From Azolla caroliniana (taxonomy: Eukaryota; Plantae; Polypodiophyta): a stretch of DNA of 64,000 nucleotides. This document shows, piece by piece, positions 15,562-50,656 of this stretch (position 1 is its first letter; each line of letters begins with the position of its first letter). The stretch covers positions 9,920,001-9,984,000 of the forward strand of contig JBHGNT010000013.1 in the NCBI GenBank assembly GCA_043228905.1, written 5' to 3'. The notes beneath the pieces were generated by a model. That model did no database searches. It was given only the letters and a program-made list of their open reading frames with translations, and had not been told where the DNA came from. The position numbers and the translations under genes are program-made.

Positions 15562-15734
15562 CCAAACGGCTCCTATTTTGGCTGGACTTAGTCGTTTAAC
15601 TCTTCTTCTAACTGACTAAGGACATCAAATCTATTCGCTAGATCTGGGCTATTAGTACTATTAGGACTATCAGATATCCCTACTGAAATAGGCTCGGGTT
15701 TAGTACAATTAGAACTAACGACTATTTGGTTTAC

Positions 15735-26848: not shown

Positions 26849-27541
26849 TGACAAGAACTACGCGCTCCCTTTGCTCAACGCTCGGCCACAACCGAGCCTA
26901 GAATAAAACACAGAAAAACAGGAATGAATACACACGACACAAAGGAGAGAAGAGTACACAGGATGTTTACGTGGAAAACCCAAACTCGGGAAAAACCACG
27001 GCAGCCCACAGACCGCGAACTATCACTATGTCAGAATGTACAATAAGAAAGCACCGAGGCCACGACCTCGAGCTTGCTATCTTCGCCACAGGTGGCAGTT
27101 ACAATCAGAGGCAACGACCTCTTCCTCTCTCTCACTCTCTCTGTACACAGTTGCACGCTCTAATCTTGCGCCAATAAGAATGACAACCACGCTATTCTCT
27201 GTTTGCCCTAAGTCATATTTATACTAATATGACTTTTCGGCTATTTACAAATATAGCCCCGATGGACTCTCAGAGACATATTTACAAATATTTCCCTTCA
27301 TCCGATGAGCACTTCTCACCTGGCCTCCACCATCCGGCTCTTGCCGGGTACTCCTCATCCGGTTCACACCGGGTCTTCCGTAGCCGGGTACTCCTCATCC
27401 GGCACTTGCCGGGTACACCACATCCGGTTCTCACCGGGTCTTCCGTAGCCAGGTACTCCTCATCCGGTTTCGGCCTCGGTCGAGTTTGCTCATCAGTATT
27501 GTTCTTCTCACTTCCCATCTGGAGGGACTTGTTTCCTAACA
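26849..27541 (-). mobile_element. copia solo LTR inside the 3' LTR of the chromovirus; TSD AGCTT
   Basis: TSD at 26844-26848 and 27542-27546; TG...CA; reverse-complement homology to the LTRs at 45413 and 47149. Confidence 0.92.
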
Positions 27542-28699
27542 AGCTTGGGGGTGGTTGGGTGGAACAGGTTCTTCAATCCAATCTATTTTCCTTGTTTTAC
27601 TTTACTTTGGTCTATTGATTAGTAATAGACTCTTAACACTAATCAAGTCAACTAGAATATTTTGTGAGCAAGTTACGATGTACTTAAGGCTTGAAGTATG
27701 TATCATTGACTTCAAATAAGTACTATCTAGCATTATCATGTATCTAGGGAGTTGGGTGATATTAAATGACAAGTTAGTTGACAGAAAAGGAATATCTCCA
27801 CTACTATCAACTGACTTGCACATTTAATGTTATACTCAGACCAAACATAGAATATAATCCACTTTCTTACACAATGGTTGGATTGATCATTGGTCCCCAC
27901 TAGTTTTGTAGCAAGTTGGTCCAAATCCCATCTAAGCTCTAAGGTGTGAGCGCATGGGTGAACTACCATTGTGAGCTACTCTCATATGTAATAGAAGTTT
28001 TGTTTTCATATATCCATCTTTTGTGGTTGTAACTCTATATACCTATCTAATCGATTCTCAATATTTCTAACATGTTTAGTGTAAACTATGTGTCTAAACT
28101 TCTGCATTCGTTTCCCTACCTGTATTCTGCATTGTGTATTGTGTAAGCCGAGCGGTTGTAGCTGACTCGAGTCTAGGTTCAAGGTATGTATGTGTATTGG
28201 ATCAGCCGATCAGGTATCGTTTTGTGTGACCATACCTTTACGTGTTCTATGTACAGTTGCACTCATGGACGTGCGACCGACTAGTACTATCCAGCATCAA
28301 ACTACAAGACCTTGATCTAGATACTTAAGGAGTAAGTATCCGACCCGTGTTATACCAGGAGGGTATAACAAAAACCTCCCTATCATGAGGCAATTATGCT
28401 ACAATCTATCTTCCGTACTGCTTTCAATCGTATGTTGCTAACACTGATCGAAGGCATGCACGAACTAGACGGTCTCCAATGTATTTGTTACGTGATCACA
28501 ATGATGGAATGTAAAAATACGTCTCATTCCAATTCTTGGAGCCCTTGTCTTGTTTGTGAGCTTCTACCATGACCAAGTTGATACTAATCAACCCAATCAT
28601 CCATGTCATCATCATCTTCCTCGGACAATGCAATGACATGTACCTATAGGTTAGTTACATCATGTCAAGGGAAAAAAGAGTTGCCCAATTATAAATTAC

Positions 28700-29030
28700 G
28701 AAGTTATAATATAATTTACCATCAAACACATGAAGGATCTCAATCCATTGGGCCTTCCTCCATTTTAAGCGTTTTTTTCTTGACAAACCATCTGATACTT
28801 TCATGGTCTAATAAAACATCGAGTGTGGCAACATAGAAATAAAGATGGCATCGCTTAAGAGCGTGCATTATAGAAAAATAAGTACTTTTCATTTGTAGTG
28901 TATATTTGCTGGGCTTCTTCCAACTTTTTCTCTCAAATCCAAATGGTCTTCGATCTTGGAGTAACACAAACAAAACCCATTTGAAAATATGACTTGCATT
29001 GGTTTCAAGAACAAATGTTTATTTAACAAA
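28700..29030 (-). pseudogene. Highly degenerate Ty3/gypsy RNase H fragment
   Basis: FVLETNAS, VLLQDRRPFGFE, SIMHALKRCHLY resemble the ETDAS / VLxQ / HALKxWRHY motifs. Confidence 0.5.
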
Positions 29031-30894
29031 AGAATCATTAGCTTACATGTATAATGATTGAAAGTCCAAAAAAGAACGTAACATTAGACTCTAAGCCGCA
29101 AGCTTAAGGTTATAAAGCATAAACTCTAGCATTGTTTCTAATTCAAATTTCTAATGGAGTTAAATCCTTTCACATTGTGACTTAGCACCAAATGTCTTCC
29201 CATCAATACTTTCACGCAATTCAATTCATCTTTCATCATCACCATAAAACATAGTTAATAAACTCATCATCCTTATCTTGAAAATTCCTATGTGGAAGTG
29301 AACGATCATAGCCTCTAGAGAGGTCCAACACTATAATTCCTTTACTTTTGTCAAAGTTAAGAAAACTCAATCCCAATGAGCATTGTTAAACGCACACTTG
29401 AATTGCAACTTTATGGAAAGACTCATCTCAAGATGGGATTAAATTCTTACATAAAAACTACTATTTGTCTTCTAGGAGAACATGTATTGGCAAAAAGCAC
29501 CGGTTACAAAGCTTGGCACTAGGTTAATATAACATATCATTCATATTCAAACAAATAAAAATAAGCCTTGTTCAAACTCCAAAGATATAAACTAGAAGAA
29601 AATGTGTAACATCGACAAACTTAGAAGCATGTATCCATGTGCTTGACTTGTTGAAACAACATGACTGTAATGAAATTTGAACCTAGTCATGTTATATAAT
29701 TGAAATGGCCACTCTAAATGTTTGGACGACATAGAGAATCAAATGACCATACAAACATGTGGTTATGTAAAACCTCATATATATATCAATTGGGAGTTTA
29801 GTTTTCTCTTGCAAATCAAATTGTGCTTCTCCATCTTAGTACAGAAAGGGATTTGTATATGTTTGACAAACGATGGTCGTAATTAGTGTATGTGAGCAAG
29901 AATATATATGTCTAATATTAAATTTGGTAGGTTTTCGTTGTATCTTAGGTTAATGTTGTCATGCTAGTCTTCTTGGCCCAAAATCACCCTTTTATGAATA
30001 TATTTTTATAATTATAGCATGAAACATAGAAGTAGAAGCATGCAATTTTCACACCATTGCATACACTAGACATGCTCGATATAAAAACCGAAACTCACAT
30101 GAGCAATTCAAGAGCATGCATGTGAACTCGAAGATATAGAAACCTTTGAAGAAATGCTACCTCATTGCCACCTCAACAAATTTGTAATGAGTAAGAAAAT
30201 GATGGTCTTCCATTTTAAGTATAATAATTCTAGCTTCGAAGCAACAGAGTCATTCATAACCCCTCCATGTTTCATCAATCATGAGAAAAGTCAAAAAAGA
30301 TTAGACGTGGGGAAGTAGATTCCATGTAAGCAAGAGTGACTTGATTGACATGATGTCGAGATGTGTGCGATAATTTCGTTCAACTAAAAAGAAACGAAGA
30401 GCAAGAAGGGCAAGGGGATGGAAGTCATGGGCATGGCGAAGGAAGTGTGCACGATACATCGTGGAATCAATCATGTCATGTTTGCTATGTCGTCTTCCAA
30501 GGGAGTGGGAATGAAGTGGAGGAGGAACCGAGACTCTCGGAATAAATCTCAACACATACCGCCCCGCCCCTTGCCTTTGTTTGTGTGCGAGAGTACACAC
30601 GACACACACAACACAACACAACACAACACAAAGAAAAGAGGAGTGCACCATCACCGTTTTCCATTTGAATTAATGGTAAGGAAGGGGAGCACGACGATAA
30701 AACCCACCCTCCATTTTCCATTCTAACTTTGGAAGAAGAAGAAGAAGAAGAAAGAAGAAAGAACATGAAAGAGCTTTCCATTCCAAAAGACACGTTTGGC
30801 TAAATAGAGACGCATGTTTTTGTTTTTGTTTTTGTTTTTCTTTTTTTACCGATAAAAAAGAACGGATAAAATATGTACATACATACGTGTTATC

Positions 30895-31000
30895 TAGAGC
30901 CACGTCAGCGATAGAAAGGCACGCTGCCAGCTGTAAAAGAGTCGTTGACGTGGAGGGAGGGGGACCTAGGTTCCCGCGCGATTGAAGACACGTGGCGGAA
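30895..31000 (+). promoter_or_regulatory. Clustered ACGT-core elements (ABRE/G-box) upstream of the host gene
   Basis: GCCACGTCA 30899-30907, TGACGTGG ~30946, CGCG ~30975, GACACGTGGC 30987-30996, followed by a (GAA)n/(CT)n-rich leader. Confidence 0.55.
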
Positions 31001-31084
31001 GCCCATTCGTGGGGATCCGCTGATTAAAAAGCTGCGTTTATCAGCAGGAGCGGGAGAAAGAAGAAGAAGAAGAAGAAGAAGAGA

Positions 31085-31134
<50 letters not shown>

Positions 31135-31174
31135 GTGCCTGTATTATATGCACGATCGCTAGGGTTTCATTGCA

Positions 31175-33078
31175 ATGCAGCAGAGATCCATGGAACACGA
31201 AGAAGAAGAAGAAGAAGAAGAAGAAGAAGAAGGAAAGGAATTAGGGAAAGAATCATCCTTCACAGATGGCCATGTCACCGACCTCGCTCAACAGATCGCA
31301 GGAGGCTCCATGCTTGATGACGAAGACGAACGCAAATATGAGCACATTATCAAGGAGCTGCATGATCAGAGTCTGGGGATAACAGTCTCTACACGCCCCA
31401 TGCAGGTGGTATGCATACTGCCATAGCCGCCACATCTCTGGACCTTCTCTTTCTGCTTCTTGACGCTTTCCCCTTCGCCATGTTCACTCTCTTCTACTGC
31501 TTGTTCTTTTTATCTTGATAGGCGTCTGAATAACCACCTTTCTTTCTTTCTTTCTTTCCTCTCCTTGATTTTGCGCAGTGTAGTCGCAATGCCCCTCCAT
31601 TGGAATGGAGATTCAGGACCTGCCAAGGAGAACGTGCAATTGCTAGCCATGACACACCAATGCAGCAGAAGAAGAAGGTAGCTGAGGAGCGAAGGCTATA
31701 TAGAGGTGATCACAAGAATACCGACGCTTATATGAAAATGCTTTACGCTGAGCTTCTGAGGATGAAGATCGAGAGCAGGTACACAAGAGAAATAGCAAGC
31801 CTCGCTGAACAAGAGGAGTACATAGGCAAAAAGCGCTTGCATCAGGTAAATGAATGCATAGATCTCTGTCTGTCTATCTGTCTGTCTGCCTGTCAAGCTT
31901 TCAAATGTAGCAAATACGTGAAGAGGAAGGGCAAAGCGGCATCAGGTAAATGAATAGATCGCTGTCTGTCTGTCTGTCTGTCTGTCAAGATTTCAAATGT
32001 AGCAAATACGTGAAGGGAAGGGCGAAGGGCGAAGCGGTTGGATGACTCAATCTTAGGTGTGTAAATGCTCTTGTTTTTTTGTTTTTGCTTTCAACAGCAG
32101 CAAATTGAGGCTTACAAGGTGCAGGCAATGAGAGCAAGGGTTGCTCTTCCAATTGATGTACTGTCATCACCTAATTTAAATAATCGTCATCAAAATCATC
32201 TTCATCACCGGCATCATCAGCAAACAAGTTGTGGTGGATCGGGGATGCGTGCAGTGTTCCTTGCAACCCACAGTAGCTCCCAACGTGAGTGTGGCGGCAC
32301 TGGCGTCTTCCTCCCTCGTGGAAGGACGCCCAGCCATGGATATAATTCTCTAGAAAGCAAGAGGAAGCCAGGTAACCCTGTAACTATCTGCACAGGCAGT
32401 AATTGTCTGATTCATTCTGAAAGTATAGATGCTTCCCATTTCATTGGAAAAGAATGTCTCAGAGTCCTAGCGTTATAATTCTTCCATTTTGATTCCCTTC
32501 CCTCTCTCACTCTCTTCTATGTTTTCTCCTAATCTTCTGCTGCTTCTTCACCATCGCCACAGCTTGCTCCACTGTCCTTCTTCCTTCTCGCATTGTCCAA
32601 GCTCTAAACCTCAATGTCGAAGACACCATCTCCGGTTCGCTACCTCGATTTGCATCTGGCAAAGGTAGTCAGGAAGAATCCTCTAATAAATAATACTCCT
32701 AAGAAAAGATCCAAAATAAGCGACAGATGCGTAGCAATCAATGGGTTGTGGTTCTGGTGGGGGTTTAGGTTGTTATGGAATAATAGAGTTTGGTCTAAGC
32801 CATTTGTCTGGAACCAGATTGAGAAATGTCTAGGGTTTTGTTTTGTCTCTTCATTTTTGTATTGGATCTTTGCAGAGCACCCCCTAGTGTGGCATGGAGA
32901 TGCACACCATAAGATCAGAGGTAGCGAGGTATGGAACACCCCGGAGATGATATGGCCACGATCTTACTACTACTCACATGGAAGAGGAGGAGGAGGAGGA
33001 GCAGGAGCAGGAGGGAGAACAAGTTCAAATGCTCATGAAGACAATATTCTCAGGCTTCCCAGTGATTGGACCTACTGA
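31175..33078 (+). CDS. Plant-specific uncharacterised protein (MRAVFL / GTGVFLP / STVLLP / LPxxWTY family); exons 31175-31405, 31579-31845, 32098-32371, 32563-32664, 32876-33078
   Basis: All four introns are GT-AG with consistent phases (0,0,1,1); spliced product contains GGSGMRAVFL, ECGGTGVFLPR, KPACSTVLLPSRIVQALNLN and terminal LPSDWTY*. Confidence 0.88.
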
Positions 33079-36000
33079 GACAGACAGACAGACAGACATC
33101 AATGATGGACAGAAAACTAATACAAAATAAAGATAGATGGAGAAGATAATCAAGCTGTACTATTGTACCATTACATATAGCATACAAACTGATTTAGGTT
33201 TCTCTTTTCTTTTTTCTTTAAAAAGCATAACTTATGATTAGCTTGATCTCCCACTAATCATCACCCACCAAACTGATCCACGAACTAACTAATACCAACC
33301 AGCCCATATTAAGCGTTTCTTGCACACACAAGGGAGAAAAGAAAAGAGAAATATATGAAGTATAAACAAGTTACAATAAATGACAATAATAAGAAGAATG
33401 AGATATGGTTGGTGCTGGATTTTGTTTGTGTGTGGATGGATGAATGTTGGCTCAAATGTGTTCCTCTTTTTCTTTATGCCTGGTTTCTACGTTTCCCACA
33501 TCCCGTTTCACACCACAACCGAGTGAAATCATCCCCAATGCATCTTAAATCTGTTCATACGATTCGAAACAAAAGAATTGCCTTGCCGCTCTCCAGAAAA
33601 CAGATTCTTTTGTTGCCTAATGAGTGTCTAGTGTCTCTTGAAATGCAAGTTGCTTGGATTACTTGAACACATTTATGTCTCTCCTCTTCTTTGCCGGTTA
33701 GTATCAAGCAATCTCAAATCCATGCATACAACTGAACGTGTACAATTTGCAATTCCCAAGGATGTGTCTTGCGAGACAAGGTGTTGAATAATCATACCCA
33801 TGCTTCCCATACACAGGTTTTGTCAAACACTTCGCTTCATAAATAAGCCGGACTCTTGAAGTACACAACCTTATCAGAAACTGCATGTACATGGGGCATT
33901 TCCTTATGGGATCTACATTAATTTTTAAGGTTCTCAAAAACTAGATAAATATAATTCAAGGCCTACTTTAGTAGGTGAGCATAACAAATGACAATGTGAA
34001 ACCAATCCTCCTTTACAAATCATATAAGGAACTTTAAGTGTTCCCATAAATTCGAATGAAATGAGATCATGTAGATTTACGAGTGTAGATTGATTAAAAC
34101 ATAAATGGATGATGCATTGGGTAAAGTGCTCTTTACAGCCCCAAGCTTTGGGTTCATGCCTCGAACAATTAGTTTGAAGTTGCGTTCATTCCAAAAAGCC
34201 GCCATATTGTTTTGATCATGCACATTGACTCCTAGCTACCAAGAACGACTTTAAAATCCACTTTCCAAAACCCAAGGGGTATATAATCATGCACTCTAAA
34301 TATTTGCTCCCACAAGAAATGCCTTTACAATTCACTTTCTACAATCAAATGTTTAAAACAATGCTAATAAAATCACGATCGGTGAGCTCAAACAATGCAC
34401 CATATTATTAGAGTAACTCTCTCATTGAGCATTCACTCCACCCCAACAATATGCTTTTAAAAAGATGGCTTTACAAACTCATTTCCATAACCCCAAGGTT
34501 CAAACTATCATTGTAGAAAATGGCTTTAGATTGGGTTCATATTAATCTTTTGCATTATTTAAGCTTCACTTATTACTTATCTTTAATTTAAGAAATTTAC
34601 CAACATATCACTTACTTGTCCTTTTCTGAAGAGAAACTGAATAATAGAATCAGTGCCTTGTTAACTTTTTTTACAAAGATGAAATAAAAATCAAGTTAGT
34701 TGAGTGCACACCTACTTGCAAAGGATAATAACATTGATGGTCACCTTACCTCCTAATTATGTACTGAATGCAATATTTTTTGTATTAACAAAATATTGGC
34801 TAGAAGTAATGGCACCATAATCACTGGTTAATATGGATTTCCAACAAAAGGATTTACACCATTTCAAAATTTGGATTGTGCTTCCTTGGTACATTTACCA
34901 TTTTAGTTGTTATTAACCATTAAGACGTTAAAACAAACCACATAGGAAATCAACAAGATTCATTTCACTATGAGCATAGAAGACACTTTATGAGGTTTAA
35001 AAAGTATTTTGCAAAGATAAGGGCAAGATGCAAATGCAAACAAAGTTTGATAACTATCGTCACAAAAACAGCACAAAAGGCCATCAAATTTTCAAGAACT
35101 AAAAACTTGACAAGTACATTGTCAAATGGAAAAATAAGAGAAATGGTTCAAACTTCATAGCCTACCTACCTAGCCATCTAGCATGACGTGTGATCTACAA
35201 GTGCACTTGATGCTCCAAGATTTGGTCGTATGATAAATCTTCTCTCTTCATGAGTTTAATGGAACGTACCATTGTCAACACTCATCTTGACTAGAAAAGC
35301 GGGAGGTTGCTGGCAATAAGCATCCATTTCAATGTGGACCCTTCCCCCTACTTCATCATGGATAACAAACCCACACATTGTTCTACCTTTGTATTTAGTG
35401 GACTCATTAAACATTCACTTAAGTAGCATTCACTACATCACACAAATGCCTACTCATTCTTTGTGTAAACATTCAACGCACATCATAACTTCCATTTGCA
35501 CATGATGTGTCATATATAAAAACGGGGACTTACCAATGTATTGCTTTTGTTTATGCCTTCCTTATGTTTGAAGATTTTGATCCACACAATGTTGATAGTG
35601 GTTTCAAGCCCCCAAGGAATGCTTTAGGACTTTTGTTCCTCCTTTCAATCAAACTTACATCACACTTTCATCACTTTTTTGTTACCTTGATATACAAATT
35701 TACTTACCCCTTTCCAACTATGTAAACTATGAAACATTACCACAAAAAAGCCCTTCAGTTTCTTCATTGTTTATTCCTTAAAACCATTAATCATTACGGC
35801 AATGATTGCAATCAATCATATTGAAGGAATCACTCCTTCAAAGAGAAAAGCAATGTTTGATGTACTGAGTTCTCATTCAGGTTTTAATATGAATAGTTGT
35901 CGATAGTAATTATGAAAGACATTGTTGCAACTAACTAAACCCAAAAACCATCCATACCGATAATTGAATCTAGGTATGAATAATGTCATGATTAAAACTC

Positions 36001-37879
36001 CTCTTTTTGAGAATGAAGTTACGTAGGAAGAGAGCCAGAATCAGTGGCTGCTTTCCTTTTTCATATAATACAAAAATCATCATATCATTCATTATCCCAT
36101 CTGCATTCAACAAACAAGTCACTTGTTAATTGATCACAAGGGTCATGCAAACATGGGAAAATCGACCATTCCTAACTACAAAAAATTTCAAGTCATGACG
36201 TCGTTATAGTTATGCTACTCTCCCCCATCAATGCGCATTCCATATACATTCCAAGAGCGGCATTGTCTACACCTTTGATAAGTCACTATGTTGATGTTAA
36301 GAATATCAACTATAACACTGCCACACTGTTATATTCTCCATATTACTAAATGACTGCTAATGAGTTTTACTTGAAAGATCGTAATGTCTGAACCTTTGAT
36401 AATCCACTATGTTGATGTTAAGAATTTATCAACTACAACACTACCACACTGTTATATTTTCCATATTACTATCAAGCTGCACGTGATTTTTAGTTGAAAG
36501 ATTGTACTGTCATTCCCTAGGGTACACGATACTATACTCTCCAATATAAAGGGTTGTATAATTATACCGATACTGCATTGATATTTCAATCCCTCACAAA
36601 TTCGGAATGATGATGCACTGTTTCTGTGACTTTTAGCATGGCAAAGTTCTGATTTTTCTACTGGCCCACAGATAAAAATTCTTAGTGTCATTCTGCGTGT
36701 CATGCACTCGATTGTAATCATATTACCAAAATTGTAGAGGCACCATTGTCTTTATTCAAACGAAGTTCTGCTTTCTCTAGTACACCTCACCAATCTGTTC
36801 CTCGTACTTGGCTGATTTACAAGTCCAAAATGATCTACGAATATTCAGTACCAAATTTACAATCCAAAACACTTCTGCCGGGTATAAAACAAAGATCGGT
36901 GTTAAAAGCATGAAGGCGTGTATACATTTACGCACTAGACGAACAAGTTGAACCTAATAATACCAACCCTGTTAAGACTGAGACTGCGAAATTAGCAATC
37001 ACATGGCTCTAGCAATTAACAGTCGTATAGGCTCTCTACTCTGTCTAGAACTAGCCCATTGATGTTTGGCACTATGCTAATCTTTGTGATTCGAAACCCC
37101 CTAAATAGTTTAATCATCAATAAGAAGATTTCCAGATAATGACGACTTAATAAAACTTGTGTCATGCTGTTTAGCGATTTAGGTATCGTAACAAACGTTA
37201 AGCATTCTAAGATGCACTCTCGTACCCAAATTTATTTTAAAGGAGTCTCTAACAAGAAGAAACGAGGGGCTTAGAAATTGCATTACGAACAACCTTAGTA
37301 TTCATTTCAGTTCAAGTCTCATAAATCATTAAAGTAAGACAAACAAGGATTCAAGGTGATATACAACTCCGATAAAAAATAGACACGTCTCTGTTAATTC
37401 CCTGATGCCAGAGACAAAACAAGTCAGACATATGGCTAGCCAATCTAGTTGGATGGGAGGGGATTGAGTAGAAGTGCACCAAAACATGCATGTCACTACA
37501 ATAGGAGCCATAATCTTCGCATCTTCAGTGCAGGGAACGAACATAGCGTTATCTATTCATTTGGTTTGTATTCCTCGCATAGCAGAAACGACGTCTAGTC
37601 ACTGATATGAATTGGCGGTGCGGAGCATATTGTCAAACTAGAAAATTGCAATGTAGTCATTTGCATCCAAGCCTAAGCATTACTAGCACATGTAAGGTTT
37701 CTCATCGAATCTATCCTAAGAAGATGGTGTAAGTATTATCTACGTTGTAAATAATATGGATGATATGGCAGTATGATCCTTACTTACGATGACAGGCAAA
37801 CAAACAAGGAATGGAAACACGAATCCAGACACAAGCCAGAATACATCTAAGAAACACCATCGCGGGCAGTCCTTCGGAA

Positions 37880-37980
37880 CCCGTAGATCCTCAGCATTCG
37901 GAAATGTATTGATTCATTTGAGGAAACCTCTTCAGAATTAGCATGGTGTATTAGAAACACAACATCATCAGATCTACGGG
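37880..37980 (-). ncRNA. Box C/D snoRNA, snoR53Y/snR53-like (18S Am796-equivalent; guide also fits U6 A53)
   Basis: Perfect 10-bp terminal stem CCCGTAGATC/GATCTACGGG; box C TGATGA 37965-37970; D' CTGA preceded by CCATGCTAAT-T, complementary to AUUAGCAUGG in 18S rRNA and U6; box D 37891-37894. Confidence 0.8.
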
Positions 37981-38135
37981 AGCTACAGCAAACACTTGAA
38001 AACCTAGTGCTACGGAGAGGAGGGAGCTACAACAAACACAACATCATCAGATCTACGGGAGCTACAACAAACACTTGAAAACCTAGTGCTACGGAGAGGA
38101 GGGAGAAACAGAGAAAATCTCCATTCATCATTTAT

Positions 38136-38229
38136 GCTCAGAAAAGCACGGATAAAATACTCTCGTCACAGAACCTGATGTAAAACAGGCCGTCAGAGTG
38201 AGCTGGGTAAATCCGGAGATCATCATCGC
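38136..38229 (-). ncRNA. Box C/D snoRNA, U29/snR71-like (25S Am2946-equivalent)
   Basis: Box C ATGATGA 38220-38226; guide ACCCAGCTCAC-T before D' CTGA 38193-38196, complementary to 25S GUGAGCUGGGU; C' GTGACGA; box D 38138-38141. Confidence 0.8.
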
Positions 38230-38489
38230 AAATTTAAGAAAACCAGAAGCGAGGGGGGGTAAAGCCTGCTTTATATAGCATCAATGGCCTTACAAAAGTA
38301 GAAGGCCTCGCGCTGCAGGCTGTCATCACAGCGGAAACCTGAGCACAACACCAACAAAAAGGAGAAGGAAGAAGGGGGTGAAAAACAGAGACCACCCCAA
38401 CAGAACCCCTTCTCCTCCTGCTACTCATTGCACTGGCTCCATCGCTCTGATAAGATCAAGTAGTGTTACTGATAGAAGGGCGCGTCTCT

Positions 38490-38580
38490 GCATACTTATA
38501 ATGGGTGGGCCTTGAATTTGCCCTAATCTCTCTCTCTCTACACATATCTATCCGGCGGTGTTACGAAACCCTAAAACATC
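38490..38580 (-). promoter_or_regulatory. Putative Pol II promoter of the snoRNA cluster (telo-box, site II, TATA-like)
   Basis: AAACCCTAA ~38567-38575, TGGGCC ~38506-38511, TATAAG on minus at ~38494-38499; this combination is known for plant ribosomal-protein and snoRNA genes. Confidence 0.55.
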
Positions 38581-40494
38581 CAACGGTGTTAAGTCATGTT
38601 CGCATTACATAACACACACACACATCGACGTTTCTATTTACAACCGAACAATAAAGAGGCGTGCATGGTCGGGAAATCGTGACATCTTCATCCTAAAAAT
38701 GTGTGCATCTTTCTACTAACCCAACACTAATCAGAGTCTCCCAATCCCAACACTGATCAGAGTCCGTCACGTCTAACCCGGACACTACCAAATTCCAGCC
38801 TTGCCATTGTAATTACCAACCTGGACCATTGTTTACAACCCCGCCATTATCAATTCAAACCAACTTATGTTTTGTCTAACTTTCTCCAAATGATTGGCTA
38901 ACCCAGGCATATGAAGCATCTACATTACTAAACCGATCAAATGGATTGTTTAACGTGGGCCGATCCTGCCATGAAATTACTAACCTGGCTATGTCTAGAT
39001 TAACCAGACTAGTTGTTCTAACCATACGAATCTACGATAGAAGTTAATAACATGGCCATGACTTCCAACCCAATCCTCGAACCTAAACCGGTTTAATGGT
39101 CCCTAAAAATGAACTCGACATCATGGTGCATCTAACTCGGCTCCAATTGTAGTGTGGCTAAAACCTTGCACATTTACACATTTTCGCCTCTTTTTGAATT
39201 TTTCAAACCTATTGCACTTGAGGTTTCAACAAACAAGAAAACCGATCACACTTGTCATCCACCACCTACGCTAGACCACCTACACCTCAACTTAAACCTC
39301 CACATGGTATGTACTTTCTTTGTTTTGTTAATTGCCTAGTGCAAGGATGTTTGTCGGTATCATATTATTGATGCAATTAATGAGGGGTTTAGGGTTTCCA
39401 ATATTTTTAAGAGATTGTGCGTGCATTTAGTTTCTTGTGGCTTTCATATTTGTTTGCATTTAGGGTTGAGGAAACATACCACCTACACCAATAACTCCGC
39501 ATGAACCTCCACCTTGTATGTGGTTCCTTCTTTCCCTTATCTGTCTAGTGTTGGCATCATTGATTGATGATTTAGGGTTAGGGTTTAGGGTTTTCAATCT
39601 TTTTGAGAGATTGTGGATGCATTTCGATTCTTGTGGCTTTCATATTTGATTGTGCGTGGAGTGTGAGTCTTGTGGCTTTCATATCGTCGTCCGGTGTCGG
39701 TACACGGGGTGGTGGTGTCGGTGGTCGTTCCTCCTTTGGTGGTGTCAGAGGTTTTCCCCGGTCTTCTGTCGCTGTCGGAGGTCTTTCCTACTCCTCTTGT
39801 GGTGACAGAGGCTTCTCCTCCTCGACTTCCGGTGTCGGAGGTCTCTCGTCGTCGACTTCTGGTTCCGGAGTGTGGTCAACTTCTAGTACCGGAGTTTCCA
39901 ACCTTGTCGATTCGGGTTCTGTTGTCGGCAAAGTATCTGACTCCTTGTCCTCTGGTCCACCTCAGGTGTCGTTACTACTGCGGTAGTTTGTCTGCGCACT
40001 GTATTCCTTGTCCGACAATGGCTTAACACAGGGTGTCTCTGGAAGACACTTCACCAAAGGGTGTTACGGCGAGATAACTTAAGACACAACGATTGCTTCG
40101 ACTTAATTAGCTTCTTAGCAATAAGGCATACACTTAATACACGCATAAGATATAACAATTAATTCAGAACGGTAATCAATACGCGAAGATAAAACAGAAG
40201 CTTATATTAATTCTTCGTTAAAGTTATACATTGTAACCAAGCCTTTATATAGGTCACCGGTGCTACGTACAAAACGGTGCCAACCGGAACCTGTTCGGAA
40301 TCGGTCCGGATCCGGATCGGCATACCGATTCCGGTCCATCCGTTCACTACATAATTATAATCTAATCTACTTAATTAAATATATTCCGAATAACCATCCC
40401 TTTCACATTCTGGTCTCTGCTCCTTTGCCGGTCGGGTAACACATGGCACGCCCGTGGGACAGTACCTTGTACGTCGAATCCCACTATCCAGCCC

Positions 40495-43490
40495 TTAGCT
40501 TTCGTCCAAGATGTCCAGAATACTCTGCTCCAGGGTATCCAATGGTTGTTCGGAATTTGGTTGTTGTTGTTGTTGTTGCGGCTATTGTTGCTGTGGTGGT
40601 TGCGGCTCCTCCGACTGTTGCTCCTGAGCGTGCGTCTGTTCGGCTTCCGGTACCGGTGGTTGTGGTGGTGATTCCTCTGTTAGCTGCTCCATTGGATTTG
40701 ACTCCGATTGATTCGTCCCGGCCTTGTCTCTGTCCAGTCCTTGCTCCAGTGATGGCTCCTCATCGCCGAGGTTGACGGTCGCCGCCTGCTTTGCTTCTTC
40801 TCTCCGTAGCCTGGTCCGCTCATAGCTCTCAAACTGGATTTGAGCATCCAATTGATCATCATCTAGTTGGGCTACCAGTTGCCGGACCACTGCTACTTCC
40901 TCCTCCGCCAGAGTTATAAAATCTTCGGCTACCTCCTCTCTGACGGCGGTGAAGTCCTCCTTCGTTAGCATGTAGCAGTCATCACCTTCCCTCTGTCGGT
41001 TTTCCGCGTTTGCCCGTAGCAACTGGAGCTCGGCTGTGTGCTTTGCCCATTTGTCCCACCATTGCGCGGAGCTTTCATCAATCAAGCGTTTGGTCTTGTT
41101 CCTCCATGCCTGGACAATGAACTAGATCCGCTCCAATCCCATCTTTGATTTGTCCTCCGCGGCTTGTCGTTCGTCCTTCAACTGCTTGATGAGTGCCACT
41201 GTATCCACCTCCTGCTCCCGGTAATGTGACAGTTGGGTTTGATAAGTGGTCTGCAGCCTTTGCAAGATCATCATCACTCTTTCCTTCTCTTCATAATGCT
41301 GCTTATGCAGCTCCATCCGTTCTTGTGCGGCTTCCTCCAGCAGCGTGGTTCTTTCAGCCCGTTCCTCCGCCAACGTCATCTCAACCCGATGTACCTCCTG
41401 TCGGAGCTCTGCCATCTTCTCATGCTGTTTCTTATGCTCCGTATCCAGGTGCTTGTGGTCCAGGTGCAGGTGCTTTTGGTTGAGTTGCCGGCGAGCGCGG
41501 TCTTCTCGGTCCTTTTGCTGATGGAGTTCTTCTTTCAGCCTTTCGATCTCTGTTTCCACCATCCGTCGCAACTTCTCCTTTTCTTGCAGCGCCTTCTCTT
41601 TCTCCTCCTTCAACCGGTCGTAGGCCTGATGTCCTTTCCGCAGATTCTCTTCTGCCCGGCGGAGGTTCTCAGCAGTCTTTCGTTGCTCTTCTTCTGCCGC
41701 TTTCTTCAAGTCCCGCTCTCGGGTGCGTAATGGTTCTTGTGCGGCCAGTTCATCTCTTAATTCAGCAAGCTCTTTTGCTTGCGTCGCCACTATCTTCGGG
41801 ACTGTTTCCGTCTCCGGGGTCTTATTGCTATGTACAGGTGCTGGTGCTTCTTTGTTCTGTACATTGATCGGGGTCACCGGTGCTTGGAGCTGTGGTCCGG
41901 TTAAGGCCATTTTGGCCAATTCTTCTATGGCCAGGTCCAAGTTTTGTTCTAGGCTCCGGATCCTTGATTGGGCCGTCTCTAGTTCTCCGGTTGTGACGAG
42001 CAACTGGTCCATCTGCGCTTTCTCTTCCGCCTCTATGTAGTGTACCACTCTGGCAATCTGTTCTCCAATCCACCGGAGCCATTGGGTACCGGTGCCCTGT
42101 TGTTGCGTTTGCCCGGAGGGTTGGCTGTTGGTGTCGCTGGCCAGTGGTCGGTTTTGTCCCGTTGCGTCGAGCTGCAACTCTAGCTCTTGTTGGTGACCAC
42201 TTTGTCGTTTAGGTTGCGGCTCCGTTGGCCGCTCAACCTCTGAACGCTCTTGGCCTGCTGGTGGGGTCGGTAATTGTACTTCCGGCACTAGCATATCGGG
42301 TCTTGCCATATCCTGACCCACCGGTAGAGGTTGTTGTGCAAGGGGCTCTGTGGCCGGTTCTGTCTGAACCGGTTCTGGTTCCATCCTCGGTGCGGGCTGC
42401 TTAGGGCAGGGTACAAGCATTCCATCCTTCTTTGGGTCCGAACGCTCCCCGACATCTTCGGAGGTGCTTGCCTTCTGGTGCCGCTGGAGGTGCTCTAACG
42501 GTTCCTCCTCTGTTTCCTTCTCCTGAGTCCCGATGTTGATTTTTGCTGCCAAGGGGTCCGACGCTTGTTGAGCCGGTCGGCTAAGTCTGATTTTGATTGG
42601 CCGCACCGGTGGCTCCTCCTGCGTTTCCGCCTGCCGCTTCCTGTTGGCGCGCTCCTTTACCACTTAGTCCGTGTCGGCCGCCTTCCCTCTGGTTGCCTTA
42701 GACGCCAACAACTGCTGTCGTTTAGAGGCCGTTTTCGGGGTGCCTTCGGTTGTTCTTCCCCGCTTCATGCTCTTGACGGGCTCGATAGGCGGCGCCAATA
42801 GAGTGAGGCATTGCGCCACCGTCGTCCATATCTTCCGACCCTCTTTGCCTCTGACAGAGTCGATGGCCGCACAGAGGCCATCCGCAATTAGTACCGCCCA
42901 GTCCACCTTCATGCCTTCATATGTGGCTATGATTAAGCCGGCCCGATTTTGGGGCATGCAGGGGGGTCGAGGGTATACATGTCTGAATTCATGGAGCACC
43001 CGGGCAATCTCGCGAAAGAGAGGATCTTCGCCGCCCTGTGTCTGGTAGGCCTTGCTTGCCAGAGAGTATTCCCCAAAGTATTTTCGGAGTTGTTCCGGGG
43101 TAGGGTTATCGATAGTGAAGATTCCCCCTTCCGGAAGGCCAATCAACGCATGGATGGCCGCCTTAGCAATCAGCTCTGTGTCGATTTCTTTGACTATCTT
43201 CTCCACCTCCCGGTGGGTGGCGCCTCCATGATGGTGAGGAAACCCTCTAAGCCGTGTTGCCTTAGCCGCTTCTTGGCTGCTTTAGAGAGTGCTTGGCAGT
43301 CCATGGCTTCGTCGAGGTCGGTGAGCGCTGGTGAGGGTTGTGTGTGAGGAGTCTCTGTGTGCGTGGGTTCGCGTCTGTTGATCTTCAATCTCCTGTCTGC
43401 GTTTGTGCTTCTCTGTTCGCGAAATGTGAGGGTTTCTATGTGGCAGGGGTCTTCTTGTTGCATGTTGGCGCCTGTTTTCTTTTTTTTCAT
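40495..43490 (-). pseudogene. Extra sense ORF (~1000 aa reconstructed) between pol and the 3' LTR: globular N-terminal domain, long coiled coil, Q-rich tail
   Basis: ORFs 42664-43206, 41122-42663 and 40582-41085 share one frame separated by single stops, continuing to TAA at 40495-40497; one frameshift near 43200 links 43194-43490. Confidence 0.75.
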
Positions 43491-43722: not shown

Positions 43723-45412
43723 CTAATTAGCGACCGGTCCCACTGGACACCTATCCGGATTGTGATCCTTGCCGAACGTTGGACCGCTTGCCGGCGCTTC
43801 CGACTTACCGGTGTCCGGTTCTGTGTCGCCCTTCACTTGTTCAAATGAGTTTCTTGGCATGGGTCCATTGTATGGTTTGAGTCGAAACTCGTTGACCCAT
43901 TTACCCAAAACCTCGCCGGCGAGTGTCCCTAATTGGTAGGAACCGTTGAACTTTCACGTAATCCAGTATGGTCCGGTCCACCGAAACCGTAACTTTCCCG
44001 GCATCTTACCCATCCAGGTCTGGAACACGAGTATTGGCTTACTGATGCCGAACATCTTTTCGTTCCCTTTTCAGTGACGATCCACGAACGCCTTCCTTCG
44101 CCGTTGCTCTAGTTCTAGGTGCATGATGTTGGCTAGCCGGTGTTCTTCCAATTCGCACAACGCGTTTAATTGGATAACTTCCGATTCCTTCTCATTTAGG
44201 CGTTCCCGAATCTGTATTCGTAAACTCGGGACCTGGAACTCTACTAGCATCACTGCTTCTAATCCAAATGCTAAGCAGAACGGTGTTGTGCGGATACTTG
44301 TTTTATATGTCGTTCGGTAAGCCCAGAGTGCACTGTGCAACTTTGTATCCCAATCCGTCCGATTCTCATTGACAATTTTCCGCAGGATATTCTGTAGTGT
44401 TTTATTTGTTGACTCTGCTAATCCGTTGGCTTGCGGATAATAGGGAGTGCTCCGTTTGTGCACCACCGCATAAAATGTCGTCAAACTTTCCACTACTTGC
44501 CCTAAGAAGTGCCCACCTTGGTAACTTAAGAGCTCTATCGGACATCCATATCGGCACCAGATGCATTCATATAAAATTTTTGCCGTGGATGCCGCGGTGT
44601 TGTCGTGTACTGCTTTTGCTTCGACCCATTTCGTGCAGTAATCCGTAGCGACGATCACGTACCGGTTGCCGGTTCTCATTGTCGGTGGTTTGAACGAACC
44701 GACAAAATCTAGCCCCCATTTCTGAAATGGTTCTAACGGTAGTACGGGCTGGTGAGGCATTCTGGCTTGTTCGGTTGGTTGCCCCATTCGTTGACATAGG
44801 TCGCATTCTTTAGCGTATCGGACTGCATCTTTCAATGTTGTTGGTCACCATAGTCCACTCTGCCATATTTTCCTTGCCGTAGCGTCTCCCGCATAATGTC
44901 CTCCGGCCACGCCGCAGTGTGGCTCGTGCAATATTACTTCCTTTTCGTCACTGCGCATTGTACGCCGCCATATGCCATCTGCGCCTTTGTGGTACAGTGT
45001 GTCCTGCAATAGACAGAAGTGTCGGCTTTGAACCGCTAAGAGTTTCCTTTCGTCTCTGTTCATCTGCTCCGGAGGTAAACCGATGCTCAGAAACTGGTGC
45101 ATATTGGTGAGCCACTTGTCTTCCTCTGCGACCGAATTGTCCCTTGCCGTTTCTGCTATGACTCTAAACAGCTCTGCATTCGGAAAGTTGTCTGGGACTC
45201 TGTCACCGGTTTCCCCGGAATCTAGCCGGCTTAAATAGTCCGCTACCGCATGCTATATGCCGGGTCAGTGGAATATCTCAAACTTGAATTCTTGTAGTAG
45301 TAACGTCCACCGGGCCAGCTTACCGGTGAGTGATGCTTTGGACACCAAATAGAGGAGCGACGAATGATCTACGTGAAAGGAAAATTTCCTTCCCAACAGA
45401 TAGTGTCTAAAC
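43723..45412 (-). pseudogene. Athila-like pol 3' part: RNase H end + integrase
   Basis: FRHYLLG...DH...LARW...HAVADYLSRL, HCGVAGGH, CDLCQR, YYPQANGLAESTNK, RWTGPYW, VNEFRLKPY. Confidence 0.9.
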
Positions 45413-46169
45413 TGTTAGGAAACGGGTCCCTCCGGATGGGAAGTGAGAACCGGATGACAAGTACCCAGCAACGGAAGACCCGGTGAGAACCGGATGTGGT
45501 GTACCCGGCAAGCGTCGGATGACGAGTACCCGGCTACGGAGGACCCGGTGAGAACCGGATGACGAGTACCCTGCAAGAGCCGGATGGTGAAGACCCGGTG
45601 AGAACCGGAAGTGTGCCCGACAAGAGCCGGATGATGCGGGCCCGGTGAGGAGTGCTCACCGGATTACAGGACATATTCGTAAATATGTTTTCTGAGAGTC
45701 CATCGGGGCTATATTTGTAAATAGCCGAAAAGTCATATTAATATAAATATGACTTAGGGCAAACTTAGATGTGTGGTTGTTATTGTTGCCATTTCTTGTT
45801 GGTGCAAGATTTGAGTTCGTAACTGCGTACAAAGAGAGAGAGAGAGAGAGTGAGAGAGAAAGAGGTCGTTGCCTCTGTTGTAACCGCCGCCTGTGGCGAA
45901 GATCGTGAGCGCGAGGTCGTTGCCTCCGTGAGCTCACTGTTGTAATTATTGTGATATAGTGATAGTTTGGAGTTTGTGGACTCCCGTGGTTTTTCCCTCT
46001 CAGGGTTTTCCACGTTAAACATACTGTGTACTCTTCTCTCCTTTTGTGTCGTGTGTATTCATTCCCCGTTTTCTGTGTTTGATTCTAAGCTCGGTTGTGG
46101 CCGAGCGGTGTTCATTGGAGCGTCTAGTTCCTGTCAAAGTGGTATCAGAGCGAGACAACACAGGAAAAA

Positions 46170-47148
46170 ATGGAAGATTCGTTGGGAGGCATGTTCAAGC
46201 TCACCGGCTCCAACTATTCGGTGTGGAAGTCGAAGATGAGGGACATGCTCATGGTTAAAGATCTTTGGCTTCCGGTTCAGTTCGGGGACAAGAGACCGGA
46301 CAAGATGGACGCCATGATATGGGAGGTGATGCACATGAAGACAACGACTTACATACGGTGCTTCATCAACATGAGCCTATACAACAACTTCAATGAAGAG
46401 AGCAAGGCTCATGAGCTCTAGGAGAAGATCGGCATTATGTTTCAGAACAAAAATGTTGTTAACCAGGTTTCGGTGTTCCGGAAGCTAGTAAGACTCTGGT
46501 ACAAAGATGGCTCCAACATGGCGGAGCACATGAATGCCTTCCAGGGGCTGATACACCAGGCAACATCATTGGAAGTACCTCTCGCCGATGAGGTACTAGT
46601 GCTACTCCTACTCTGTTCCCTCCCAGATAGCTGGGAGACGTTGGTTGTCACTTTGGGCAACGCCGGGCCGGAAGGGAAACGGTTATCTCTAGCAAGAGTG
46701 AAGTCGAGCTTGCTAGATGAGGAGGCACGTCCGAAAGATAACGATACGAGCTCCGACTCCAAAGCGCTCATTACCGAATTGGAACGCGGAAGACAAAGGA
46801 ACCGTAGTCCCCAGAACCGGGAAAAGTCGGGGACACGGTCAAAGTCAAGGGGGAGGCCTACTTGCTTCTATTGCGGCAAGCCGGGACACTTCCAGAAGAA
46901 CTGTCGGCATTTCCGAAAAGACAAGGAAACCGACGGTACCAATTCGAAGTGGACACCAGACCGGAACGGTAAAGACCGGAGGGGAATGGACCGGAAGGGA
47001 ATGACGGCAATTGCGGCAAGCGAAGAAGAGTTGATGCTCATCATCAAGGAGAGTGAGATAAACCTTGCTGGCGACGAGATGACGTGGGTGGTCGACTCCG
47101 GAGCGTCGTTCCACCTTACCCCAGATCGGAAATGTTTCTCATCCTACT
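46170..47148 (+). pseudogene. copia A gag and protease start, cut by insertion of copia B
   Basis: KLTGSNYSVWKSKM, CFYCGKPGHFQKNC, WVVDSGASFH; TAG at ~46419. Confidence 0.9.
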
Positions 47149-50100
47149 TGTTGGGAGACAGGTCCCTCCGGATGGGAAGGGAGAAGAACAGTGTTGATGA
47201 ACAAACTCGACCGAGGCCGATAGGCCTCGGTCAAAACCGGATGAGGAGTCGCTGGCTACGGAGAGCCGGATGGTGCAGACCCGGTATGAACCGGATGAGG
47301 AGTACCCGGCTACAGAGAGCCGGATGGTGCAGACCCGGTATGAACCGGATGAGGAGTACCCGGCTTCGGAGAGCCGGATGGTGCAGACCTGGTATGAACC
47401 GGATGAGGAGTACCCGGCTTCGGAGAGCCGGATGGTGCAGACCCGGTATGAATCGGATGAGGAGTACCCGGCTTCGGAGAGCCGGATGGTGCAGACCCGG
47501 TATGAACCGGATGAGGAATACCCGGCTACGGAGAGGCGGATGGTGCAGACCCGGTATGAACCAGATGAAGAGACATATTCGTAAATATGTTTTTGAGAGT
47601 CCATCGAGGCTATATTTGTAAATAGCCGAAAAGTCATATTAGTATAAATATGACTTAGGGCAAACTTTTAGTAGTTGTTGCTGTCATTTCTTGTTGGTGC
47701 AAGAAAAGAGAGAGTGCATAACTGTACAAAGAGTGAGAGAGAGAAAGAGGTCGCTGCCTCTGTTGTAACCGCCGTCTGTGGCGAAGATCGTGAGCACAAG
47801 GTCGTTGCCTCCGTGAACTCACTGTTTGTACATTCCAACATAGTGATAGTTTGCAGCCTGGGGGCTGTCGTGGTTTTTCCCCTAGTTTGGGGTTTTCCAC
47901 GTAAACCTCCTGTGTATCTTCCTCTTCTTTGTGTCGTGTTTCATTTCCCATTTTCTGTGTATCATTCTAAGCTCGGTTGTGGCTGAGCATTGCGCATAAG
48001 GAGCGTTGAGCTCCCGTCAAGTGGTATCAGAGCAAAACGACACAAAAAATGGACGAATCGTTTGGCGGCATGTTCAAGCTCACCGGCTCCAACTATTCAG
48101 TGTGGAAGTCGAAGATGAGGGATATGCTCGTGGTAAAAGATCTTTGGCTGCCGGTTCAGTTTGGGGACAAGAGACCGGACAAAATCGACGCCGCGATATG
48201 GGAGGTGATGCACATGAAGACAACGGCGTACATACGGTGCTTCATCGACATGAGCCTGTACAACAACTTCAATGAAGAGAGCAAGGCTCATGAGCTCTGG
48301 GAGAAGATCGGCATAATGTTTCAAAACAAAAATGCTGTTAATCAGGTTTCGGTATTCCGGAAGCTAGTAAGACTCCGATACCAAGATGGCTCCAGCATGG
48401 CGGAGCACATGAATGCCTTCCAGGGGCTGATACACCAGGCAACATCATTGGAAGTACCTCTCACCGACGAGGTACTAGCACTACTCCTGCTCGGTTCCCT
48501 CCCGGATAGCTGGGAGACGTTGGTTGTCACTCTGGGCAACGCTGGGCCGGAAGGAAAACGACTATCCCTAGCAAGAGTGAAGTCGAGCTTGCTGGATGAG
48601 GAGGCGCGTCGGAAAGATAAGGATACGAGCTCCGACTCCAAAGCGCTCCTTACCGAATCGGAACGCGGAAGACATAGAAATCGTAGTCCCCAGAACCGGG
48701 AGAAGTCGGGGACACGGTCAAAGTCAAGGGGGAGGCCCACTTGCTTCTATTGCGGCAAGCCGGGACACTTCCAAAAGAACTTTCGGCATTTCCGAAAAGA
48801 TAAGGAGACCGACGGTACCGATTCGAAGCGGACCCCGGACTGGAATGGTAAAGACCGGAGGGGGCCGGACCGGAAGGGAACGACGGCAATCGCGGCAAGT
48901 GAAGAGGAGTTGATACTCATCACCGAGGAGAGTGAGATAAACCTTGCCGGCGACGAGATGACCTGGGTGGTAGACTCTGGAGCGTCGTTCCACCTTACCT
49001 CGGACTGGAAATGCTTCTCATCTTACTCAGCCGGTGATCACGGCTGTGTCCGGATGGGGAATGAAGGTACATGCCGAATTGTCGGCATAGGAGACGTGTG
49101 GCTGTCGACACCAACCGGATGCAAGTTGCTGCTGAAGGATGTCCGACACGTTCCGGAGGTTCGTCTGAACCTTATATCAGCCGGTCGGCTAGATGATGAA
49201 GGCTACATGGGTAGCATCCGGAACGGTGTCATGAAGTTCAGCAAAGGGAGCCTGATTGTGACTCGGGCCCGGAAGGTAAACACATTGTACCTGATGAATG
49301 CTCGGTTATGTTCGGAAGAAGTGAACGTGGCATTCGACACTGTCGGTGAGCTGTGGCACAAGAGGCTGTGTCACATGAGCGAGAAGGGGATGAAGAGGCT
49401 TGCAGACGACAACCTCATTCTAGTGAAGAACGTGCACTTGGAGAAGTGCACTGATTGTCTGGCCGGTAAGCAAAACCGGACCTCCTTCCGACCAAGGCCA
49501 TTGATGAGACGTAATGCACCACTGGAGTTGGTGCATACGGATGTGTGTCAGGTAGACACAAAGTCACATGCCGGAGCGTAGTACTTCGTGACGTTCATAG
49601 ATGACCACAGCCGGAAGCTGTGGGCCACACCGTTGAAGACGAAGGATCAGGTGCTATCCGTCTTCAAAGAGCTCCACGCGAGAGTGGAAAGAGAAACCGG
49701 CAGGAAGCTGAAGGCGGTTCGAGCAGATAACGGAGGAGAATACCGGGGGCAATTCGAGGAGTACTGCCGCTCGAAGGGAATCCGGCTCGAATTTACCGTG
49801 CCGAAGACGCCGGAACTAAACGGGCTGGCCGAGAGGATGAACCGGACCATAATGGAGAGGGTCCGGAGTATGCTAGCACATGCAAAACTACCCAAGAAGT
49901 TTTGGGCTGAGGCATTGTCGACGGCGACATACGTGATAAACAGATCACCCTCAATACCCTTGGACGGAGACACGCCACAGAGAGTTTGGACCGGTAAGGA
50001 AGTGTCCTACCGGCATCTGAAGGTGTTCGGGTGTCTCGCGTACGTGCATGTAGCTAAGGACCGGAGAGGAAAGTTAGATCCAAAGACCCGGCCATGCATA

Positions 50101-50260
50101 TTCCTCGGTTACGTCGACGATGAGTTCGGCTACCGAGTGTGGGATCCGGTCGACAAGAAGGTATTCCGGAGTCGAGATATTATCTTCATGGAGAACAAGA
50201 CGCTCGCCGACTGGGAGTCAGAGAAGAAGATAATGAACTTCGAGTCGACCGGTAAGGAGA
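47149..50260 (+). mobile_element. Ty1/copia element B (related subfamily): 5' LTR + gag-PR-INT, 3' part lost
   Basis: LTR 47149-48019, PBS-Met 48022-48033, ORF from 48049; no second B-type LTR or matching TSD found. Confidence 0.88.
47237..47570 (+). repeat. 54-bp tandem array (~6 copies) in copia B LTR U3
   Basis: Unit ACCGGATGAGGAGTACCCGGCT(A/T)CGGAGAGCCGGATGGTGCAGACCCGGTATGA; gives an 18-aa periodicity in all frames. Confidence 0.9.
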
Positions 50261-50265
50261 TATGA
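48049..50265 (+). pseudogene. copia B gag-protease-integrase polyprotein (one in-frame TAG at 49579-49581, truncated)
   Basis: WVVDSGASFH, LWHKRLCH, LVHTDVC, RADNGGEY, NGLAERMNRT, KLDPK...CIFLGY. Confidence 0.9.
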
Positions 50266-50656
50266 AATGTAGTTAACTTAAAGAAAATCACAATTATGGT
50301 CAACTCAAGGCACAAGTTAAGATTAATGGTTTCACCATCTTGAGAAGATTAAGGTTACATCTATTGTTAGACTTGAAAATGTTTTAAGTATAAAAGGTAA
50401 TATTGCAATCCTTAATGTCATCATCTATAAATTAGTGCTCATTAACATCCATAAATTCACAACTCAAGAAATGTAGATAATATTCATAAACAATTTTGAT
50501 AAATCCACAACTCCTAAAATGTAGACGATATTCATAAATTGTCAAACTTTAGATGTGAACATTAATATATCAATTTGAACATAACACATAGTTATCAAGG
50601 TATCTACAATGTTATAATCTCCTTCCTTATAAGAATTCCCCTTCAAAATTTGTGAA

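Follow-up and report, generated by a model that had tools for sequence, protein, structure and literature searches.

A clade of Ty3/gypsy retrotransposons was found to lack the polypurine tract (PPT) before the 3' LTR, and to carry in its place a cassette copied from the 3' end of tRNA-Arg(UCU). This replacement is real and clade-wide. Priming of the plus strand from a PPT is the accepted rule for retroviruses and LTR retrotransposons, and a successful clade of several families without a PPT means that the plus-strand primer can be swapped. The explanation that we prefer, to which we assign roughly an even chance, is that a second host tRNA anneals to the complement of the cassette on the minus-strand cDNA and primes the plus strand 2 bases before the LTR. 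It is probable that a new priming route is in use under one or other of the two leading mechanisms, a host tRNA or a genome-encoded tRNA mimic.

The window, a 64,000-nucleotide stretch of the Azolla caroliniana contig JBHGNT010000013.1, contains a Ty3/gypsy element whose gag, RT, RNase H and integrase were all placed on the minus strand by Pfam (zinc knuckle, RT and RNase H at 58531-55697; integrase core at 44844-44074). Self-comparison gave an LTR pair at 40014-40443 and 59979-60409 with 94% identity. As annotated here, the 5' LTR occupies 59961-60407 on the minus strand, running from TGTTA to TAACA with a TATATAAA box on the minus strand near 60215. The 3' LTR, likewise minus-oriented, occupies 40014-40441; it agrees with the 5' LTR at 404 of 428 aligned positions, its final 18 nt or so having gone through a deletion. 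The normal primer binding site (PBS), TGGCGACCAC at 59953-59944 on the minus strand, lies 7 nt past the 5' LTR and is a 10-nt complement of the 3' end of tRNA-Arg(UCG). The minus orientation and the position of this PBS had been given in the first-pass annotation, and both hold: the minus strand carries the ORFs as well as the TATATAAA box, and the PBS sequence is present.

The direct LTRs (TG..CA) surround gag, RT, RNase H and integrase in gypsy order, as they do in the intact relatives P0002 and P0004. The region 55816-59909 (minus strand) holds gag with its zinc knuckle, RT and the start of RNase H, and has several stops and frameshifts, showing that the window copy is dead. The end of RNase H and the integrase (rve) follow at 44074-45412 (minus strand), with no second, archaeal-type RNase H. 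Between these two parts RNase H is split by a nested Ty1/copia element (45413-55815, plus strand) with a 5-bp target duplication, TAAAC, which lies outside the mechanism considered here. Minus this insert the gypsy element is about 10 kb long, of which about 2.7 kb is an extra 3' ORF in sense orientation (40585-43313, minus strand). This ORF is interrupted by stops in the window copy and forms a single frame of approximately 940-1170 codons, stop to stop, in intact relatives. Its N-terminal domain of about 170 residues is common to the clade and is accompanied by a long coiled-coil-like region (window 40585-43313; L008:1542-4403; L009:1381-4890). No Pfam family scored above cut-off in the window copy or elsewhere for this ORF, and in the atlas search all matches were below 0.9, with PMD and DUF1985 as weak leads. 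The cassette is located shortly past its stop codon.

The locus as a whole reads LTR, internal region, LTR, and then the remnant of a second unit. This remnant is a truncated second copy of the 5' region of gag (39680-40015, minus strand; 93% identical to 59297-59632), left past the 3' LTR from a tandem unit. The join between the 3' LTR and this fragment is a deletion of about 350 nt with short microhomology, and the fragment ends at a further short microhomology with the flanking DNA. No target-site duplication was found for the gypsy element, its left end having been lost in the deletion and tandem remnant.

On the plus strand, 40437-40460 reads TAACA CA TGGCACGCCCGTGGGAC, confirming the earlier report of a tRNA 3'-end sequence where the PPT should be. 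The longest purine run before the 3' LTR is 4 nt within 40 nt and 7 nt within 300 nt, the latter 230 nt away; across the window and five other loci, the longest run within 40 nt of the 3' LTR is 3-4 nt, and no PPT is present. The feature had first been described as 17 nt long (40444-40460), which missed the hairpin: it is in fact a cassette of 41 nt, 40444-40484 on the minus strand, ending 2 nt ahead of the 3' LTR. It consists of positions 49-58 of tRNA-Arg(UCU), a 13-nt insert, and positions 59-76 including CCA minus one C. The copy of positions 49-58, corresponding to the 5' strand of the T-stem and the T-loop, is at 40474-40484 (minus strand); it has one extra A in the window copy and can pair with the cassette's own CCAC. 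The insert between the equivalents of positions 58 and 59 is at 40461-40473 (minus strand) and forms a 4-bp hairpin with a 3-nt loop, with compensatory changes across families. The copy of positions 59-76, one C short, is at 40444-40460 (minus strand), and on the minus-strand cDNA would be the putative tRNA-binding site.

The spacer between CCA and the start of the LTR (40442-40443, minus strand) is TG in the window and GG or AG in sister families. With the LTR defined as TGTT..AACA and a variable 2-nt spacer following CCA, the motif does not abut the LTR, as had originally been claimed; the LTR starts at 40441 and not at 40443. The 2-nt spacer has the size expected of an overhang trimmed by integrase. 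Members of the clade have 4-7 nt between the AACA that ends the LTR and the PBS (window 59954-59960; L009:5512, L024:4199, L025:641), so that the overhang at the U5 cDNA end would exceed the 2 nt found at U3. tRNA genes usually lack an encoded CCA. Because the cassette contains CCA, it probably arose through capture of a mature tRNA by RT.

The identity of the tRNA was checked by comparison with Arabidopsis tRF-3 fragments. The tRF-3 of ArgTCT is GTCCCACCGGGCGTGCCA, and one of ArgTCG ends CACTGTGGTCGCCA, as listed in the available part of PMC8482286 (supplementary file 3 for ArgTCT). The last 11 nt of the window tail match the ArgTCT tRF-3 ungapped, and 6 more match after a 1-nt gap (17/18, one bulge), in keeping with the initial description of a tRNA-Arg(UCU) end one nucleotide short. 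The first-pass annotation had made its reading depend on a tRNA match of at least 12 nt including CCA; ungapped, the match stops at 11 nt against the Arabidopsis tRF and the bacterial proxy, whereas with one bulge it reaches 17/18. The references for these matches, the Arabidopsis tRF and the bacterial tRNA-Arg L089 (which has the same 3' end and is identical to the Arabidopsis tRF over 23 nt), may differ from the tRNA of the host. The normal PBS matches the ArgTCG tRF-3 over 10 nt. From composition, the 11-mer should occur 0.011 times over the full window, and its position-specific chance is about 9e-5, a generous figure that allows for 60 tRNA ends and 6 offsets.

Searches for complete tRNAs were negative. 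ARAGORN found no tRNA genes in the 64-kb window, so that the full cloverleaf with anticodon arm of a tRNA gene or SINE is absent, and none in the 33 scanned of the 80 metagenome loci described below; Rfam gave no tRNA match in 40300-40700 at E values up to 10. The tRNA-end pattern occurs in 14 stretches in GTDB, of which all five tested were bacterial tRNA-Arg genes, with no plant tRNA gene, and in two stretches in viral sequences, one of them a phage tRNA-Glu. Scans of IMG/VR found no stretch with the cassette and no relatives. In L008, L024 and L066 the tail carries a G-to-A variant that would form a tolerated G-T pair with the tRNA. This variant tail, GAGCGTGCCA, has 10 nt identical to a TrpCCA tRF-3 in the available part of PMC8482286. 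The identity may be due to chance or to an Arg isodecoder. The TrpCCA tRNA behind this tRF-3 is presumably organellar.

We then carried out an integrase-based scan, in which the motif was not used, and took the best 80 metagenome loci of at least 514. Six of these loci were testable members of the clade, with 62-79% integrase identity and at least 3.5 kb past the integrase. The cassette is found 2 nt before TGTT in five of the six (L008, L009, L024, L066 and L025); in the sixth, L026, similarity to L009 stops at 2142 nt, and the locus is truncated. Sister families therefore carry the cassette, and not the ordinary PPT that the first-pass annotation had proposed to look for in them. L028 and L035 also have the cassette at LTR starts; they were used in the cassette alignment only and are outside the five of six, and the integrase of L028 probably belongs to another element. 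None of the 12 outgroup loci with at least 3 kb downstream, among the same best 80 of at least 514, has the cassette. A G-rich PPT lies directly before TGTT in the outgroup Athila-type families L053/L054, L067 and L076, and L044 and L040 have a tentative PPT only. No LTR pair or clear PPT junction was seen for L042, L043, L046, L052, L055, L056, L071 and L080, making most of the 12 negatives weak.

Among the window, L008, L009 and L066, blastn can align nothing but the 45-95 nt around the cassette; alignments reach further only in close pairs, namely L008 and L024, and the window and either L035 or L028. The 3' LTRs of L008 and L066 end in AACA. The 5' LTR of L025 starts at TGTT with an unrelated flank, and in the window too the outer flank of the 5' LTR is without the cassette. 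In Logan contigs from four runs of four studies, summed depth peaks at 40440-40478, about twenty-fold over the neighbouring LTR and 3' region (in run X1, 785,761 at the peak against 21,508-40,936 in the LTR bins 40356-40425); summed contig depth is not copy number, and these contigs show neither RNA ends nor strands. The contigs at the peak have diverse loose ends on both sides, which together with the peak indicates that many diverged families share only this segment. Organism C has the cassette as well, with 392 pieces; organism D shows hardly any of it (4 pieces), and five pieces matched in run X14, guessed to be RNA.

The type of the PBS varies within the clade and the cassette stays Arg(UCU). 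The window, L001 and L035 have an Arg(UCG) PBS, L009 and L019 have an Arg(UCU) PBS, and L025 has a third type. We rejected the idea that the cassette is a copy of each element's own minus-strand primer. L025 is the most distant carrier, at 62% integrase identity. It has no hairpin, retains the C that is lacking elsewhere, and keeps 15 tRNA positions, with one change within CCA.

The hairpin in the insert occurs in the variants GTAC/GTAC, GCGC/GCGC and GGAC/GTCC. Both sides have changed at two of the seven pairs, 95.9% of cells pair, and none of 500 shuffles reaches the covariation score; since these counts come from seven related rows (about four families) and the structure was read from the same rows, they amount to support and not proof. 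Position 58 of tRNAs, after which the insert lies, is usually methylated and stalls RT. In duplex models of the cassette with the tRNA, calculated using RNA parameters and bacterial L089 as proxy, the 13-nt segment loops out at one and the same point in each of the seven copies that have the hairpin. In six of eight copies the predicted DNA fold keeps 9-10 nt of the site free of pairing, close to the 10-13 nt of the PBSs in the clade. The fold of the window cassette is no better than that of shuffles (RNA z -1.2, DNA z 0.1), which counts against the reading as a tRNA-primed site.

These observations can be combined into a model, which we hold at about even strength, in which both strands of the PPT-less elements are primed by host tRNAs (two arginine isoacceptors in this case), and the hairpin between positions 58 and 59 acts as a switch that exposes the second site on new cDNA only. 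The minus strand would be primed by one tRNA at the normal PBS; RT would copy the cassette, and RNase H would degrade the RNA. The new DNA would then fold into the predicted hairpin, leaving unpaired the 9-10 nt that match the acceptor end of the tRNA, and the hairpin may help to evict leftover RNA. tRNA-Arg(UCU) would pair over 10-11 nt, like the short PBSs of the clade, or alternatively over as many as 27 nt if the 13-nt hairpin loops out. Finally, the second tRNA would be removed by RNase H in the same way as the primer of the minus strand, and the 2-nt spacer would be trimmed off by integrase. The four acidic catalytic residues of RNase H are intact in the proteins of the clade.

Several points count against a host tRNA as primer. 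One C is missing relative to the tRNA in the window and in six of the seven other carriers, and the hairpin would hide part of the site; the loose contig ends moreover show many families in which the self-stem extends over GGG, leaving only 7 nt free. Three copies have mismatches in the tail (CTA for CCA in L025 and L035, position 66 in L028), though all three may be decayed. The site is also matched perfectly by the genomic RNA, which would compete for it. In the main alternative, which we regard as possible but clearly less probable, the cassette in the genomic RNA forms a tRNA-like hairpin that withstands RNase H; cleaved behind its CCA, it would then serve as the plus-strand primer, a structural substitute for the PPT with no second tRNA. 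Such a self-primer would account for the compensatory changes in the hairpin and for the missing C, which accompanies the hairpin form and improves the self-stem. It would also keep the canonical logic of a primer encoded by the genome, as set out in the available part of PMC5371799, and the 2-nt spacer fits it equally well. However, the primer would be held on its template by only 7-10 nt, the covarying pairs are Watson-Crick and hence fit the DNA strand as well, and the counts derive from the seven related rows of about four families. Furthermore, L025 retains the tRNA tail without such a hairpin. That L025 keeps the tRNA sequence, C included, suggests that an outside tRNA imposes the constraint and that the fold does not, and an exact tRNA tail across families that are otherwise unalignable is more readily accounted for by pairing with an outside tRNA. 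We favour the host tRNA as primer because the tail still matches the tRNA exactly where the hairpin and all flanking sequence have been lost.

It is unlikely that the cassette is functional without being a plus-strand priming site, for example by pairing with the PBS (in genome circularisation or minus-strand self-priming) or as a signal for processing or packaging, while the plus strand starts from some other site. The tail of L009 is complementary to the PBS of the same element over 11 nt (-24.9 kcal/mol) and that of L024 pairs at -19.8, and there are parallels in the 3' element of the bipartite PBS of Ty3 and the self-priming of Tf1, according to the parts of PMC10085805 and PMC5371799 that were available. 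Against this, pairing between tail and PBS is poor in the window, L035 and L025 (-7 to -9 kcal/mol), implying that cassette and PBS do not covary; good pairing with the element's own PBS is confined to L009 and L024, and we rejected such pairing as obligatory. In addition, the Ty3 3' element is complementary to a tRNA whereas the cassette is identical to one, no substitute PPT is present near the LTR, and the fixed 2-nt distance to U3 is a requirement of a primer end. Reversed polarity, in which the replicated RNA is antisense to gag-pol, the motif is the true PBS and 59944-59953 is a mirror site, would still leave two tRNA sites and seems very improbable. It draws on the classic PBS geometry of the motif on the plus strand (AACA, 2 nt, TGG) and on a tRNA match longer than that at 59944-59953, but every ORF lies on the minus strand, as does the TATATAAA box, and the 59944 site has a T-rich spacer as in the Athila PBS junctions described in the available part of bioRxiv 10.64898/2026.03.20.713144. 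We give almost no weight to a local artefact in which a second, nested copy inserted next to a PBS that was foreign or there by chance, and contributed the left LTR as its 5' LTR. A second gag fragment does follow the left LTR, the U5 end is lost, and no target duplication was found; nevertheless the same cassette stands before the 3' LTR in four other families (L008/L024, L009, L066 and L025), and the peak is present in contigs of several studies. A junction artefact or local inversion, raised as a possible objection in the first-pass annotation, was therefore rejected on the evidence of the sister loci and the contig peaks.

In the literature searched, which was mainly open-access, no description was found of a plus strand primed by a tRNA or tRNA mimic, in agreement with the initial impression that there was none. 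Text searches for the motif returned unrelated papers only, and the supplement of PMC5389709 contained no match. In the available parts of PMC6317226, PMC10085805, PMC5371799, bioRxiv 10.64898/2026.03.20.713144 and PMC8482286, plus-strand priming is either by a PPT or unaddressed; the part of PMC10085805 describes ordinary PPTs and provides no precedent. The known variety of primers (whole tRNA, half tRNA, self-primer) concerns the minus strand, as far as covered by the same part of PMC6317226. The clade offers a simple test system for the choice of primer by RT and RNase H. There is a consequence for annotation too, since such elements may be missed or assigned to the wrong strand by pipelines that depend on PBS and PPT signals.

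An integrase tree of 70 sequences was calculated, for which 44 of the 80 loci were offered and from which L035 and L066 were excluded by a length filter. The carriers fall in a clade with 100% support that includes the fern (Adiantum) proteins P0011 and P0014. Loci with an ATHILA PBS form a separate clade, also with 100% support, in a tree based on integrase only and without REXdb references, whose deeper nodes are weak (31%). The nearest named relatives are the fern proteins, with a Selaginella protein branching nearby at 72% support. Archaeal RNase H is absent from the window, P0001, P0002, P0004, P0005, P0007 and P0010, and present in P0048. There is no Chromo match in P0002 or P0004, and the element lies outside the chromovirus outgroup. 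The most suitable classification is as a non-chromovirus gypsy clade without a fixed place, likely one of non-seed plants.

The earlier label 'Athila-like' is supported neither by the integrase tree nor by the type of PBS, which is Arg and not Asp, Asn or Ala. Elements of the Athila group, non-chromoviruses of the OTA superclade, resemble the clade in having neither archaeal RNase H nor a chromodomain; both also possess an extra 3' ORF, and in both an AT-rich spacer separates the LTR from the PBS (PMC6317226 and bioRxiv 10.64898/2026.03.20.713144, in the parts available). Their PBSs are mainly for tRNA-Asp/Asn, and also Ala, according to Additional file 5 of PMC6317226, and the available part of the bioRxiv paper (10.64898/2026.03.20.713144) gives a conserved PPT junction in 97% of its Brassicaceae ATHILA set; here, by contrast, there is an Arg PBS and no PPT. 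The available part of PMC6317226 gives two further comparisons. The Tat elements (TatIII, Ogre, Retand) share tRNA-Arg PBSs and long 3' regions with extra ORFs, but Tat (TatI-III, Ogre and Retand) is defined by an added archaeal RNase H, which is absent in this clade. The Phygy and Selgy elements of non-seed plants are likewise non-chromoviruses without archaeal RNase H; they are set apart, on the basis of their descriptions, by being short, with no extra ORF and with a tRNA-Trp/Thr or tRNA-Ala PBS.

Ty3 itself, in the portion of PMC5371799 at hand, has a tRNA-primed minus strand at the PBS, an RT with RNase H, and a defined plus-strand start at U3, as here. The plus strand of Ty3, however, starts from an RNase H-resistant purine tract, in place of which the present elements have the copy of a tRNA 3' end. 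The self-priming of Tf1 and Tcn1 and the bipartite PBS of Ty3 are similar in that they are genome-encoded or split priming elements in Ty3/gypsy, but they concern the minus strand, and a PPT is kept in both types of element (PMC6317226, PMC10085805 and PMC5371799, as far as available).

Some minor observations can be added. The nested copia element (45413-55815) has an internal duplication, in which 45476-47148 resembles 47385-49027, a tandem array of a 54-nt unit at 47181-47612, and an AT-rich insertion with long inverted repeats at approximately 50657-52707. An LTR related to that of the nested copia is present in inverted orientation at 26846-27469. Further retroelements in the window, at 720-4751, 6651-16766 and 22229-26566, are a LINE with endonuclease and RT, an internally duplicated gypsy element, and a chromovirus. 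An outgroup gypsy family (L046:5108-6958, L047:6970-8820) has an aspartic protease, PF13975, about 250 residues past the integrase core (E approximately 1e-6); the match is above cut-off and lies within a single frame of 2458 codons, an unusual order of domains.
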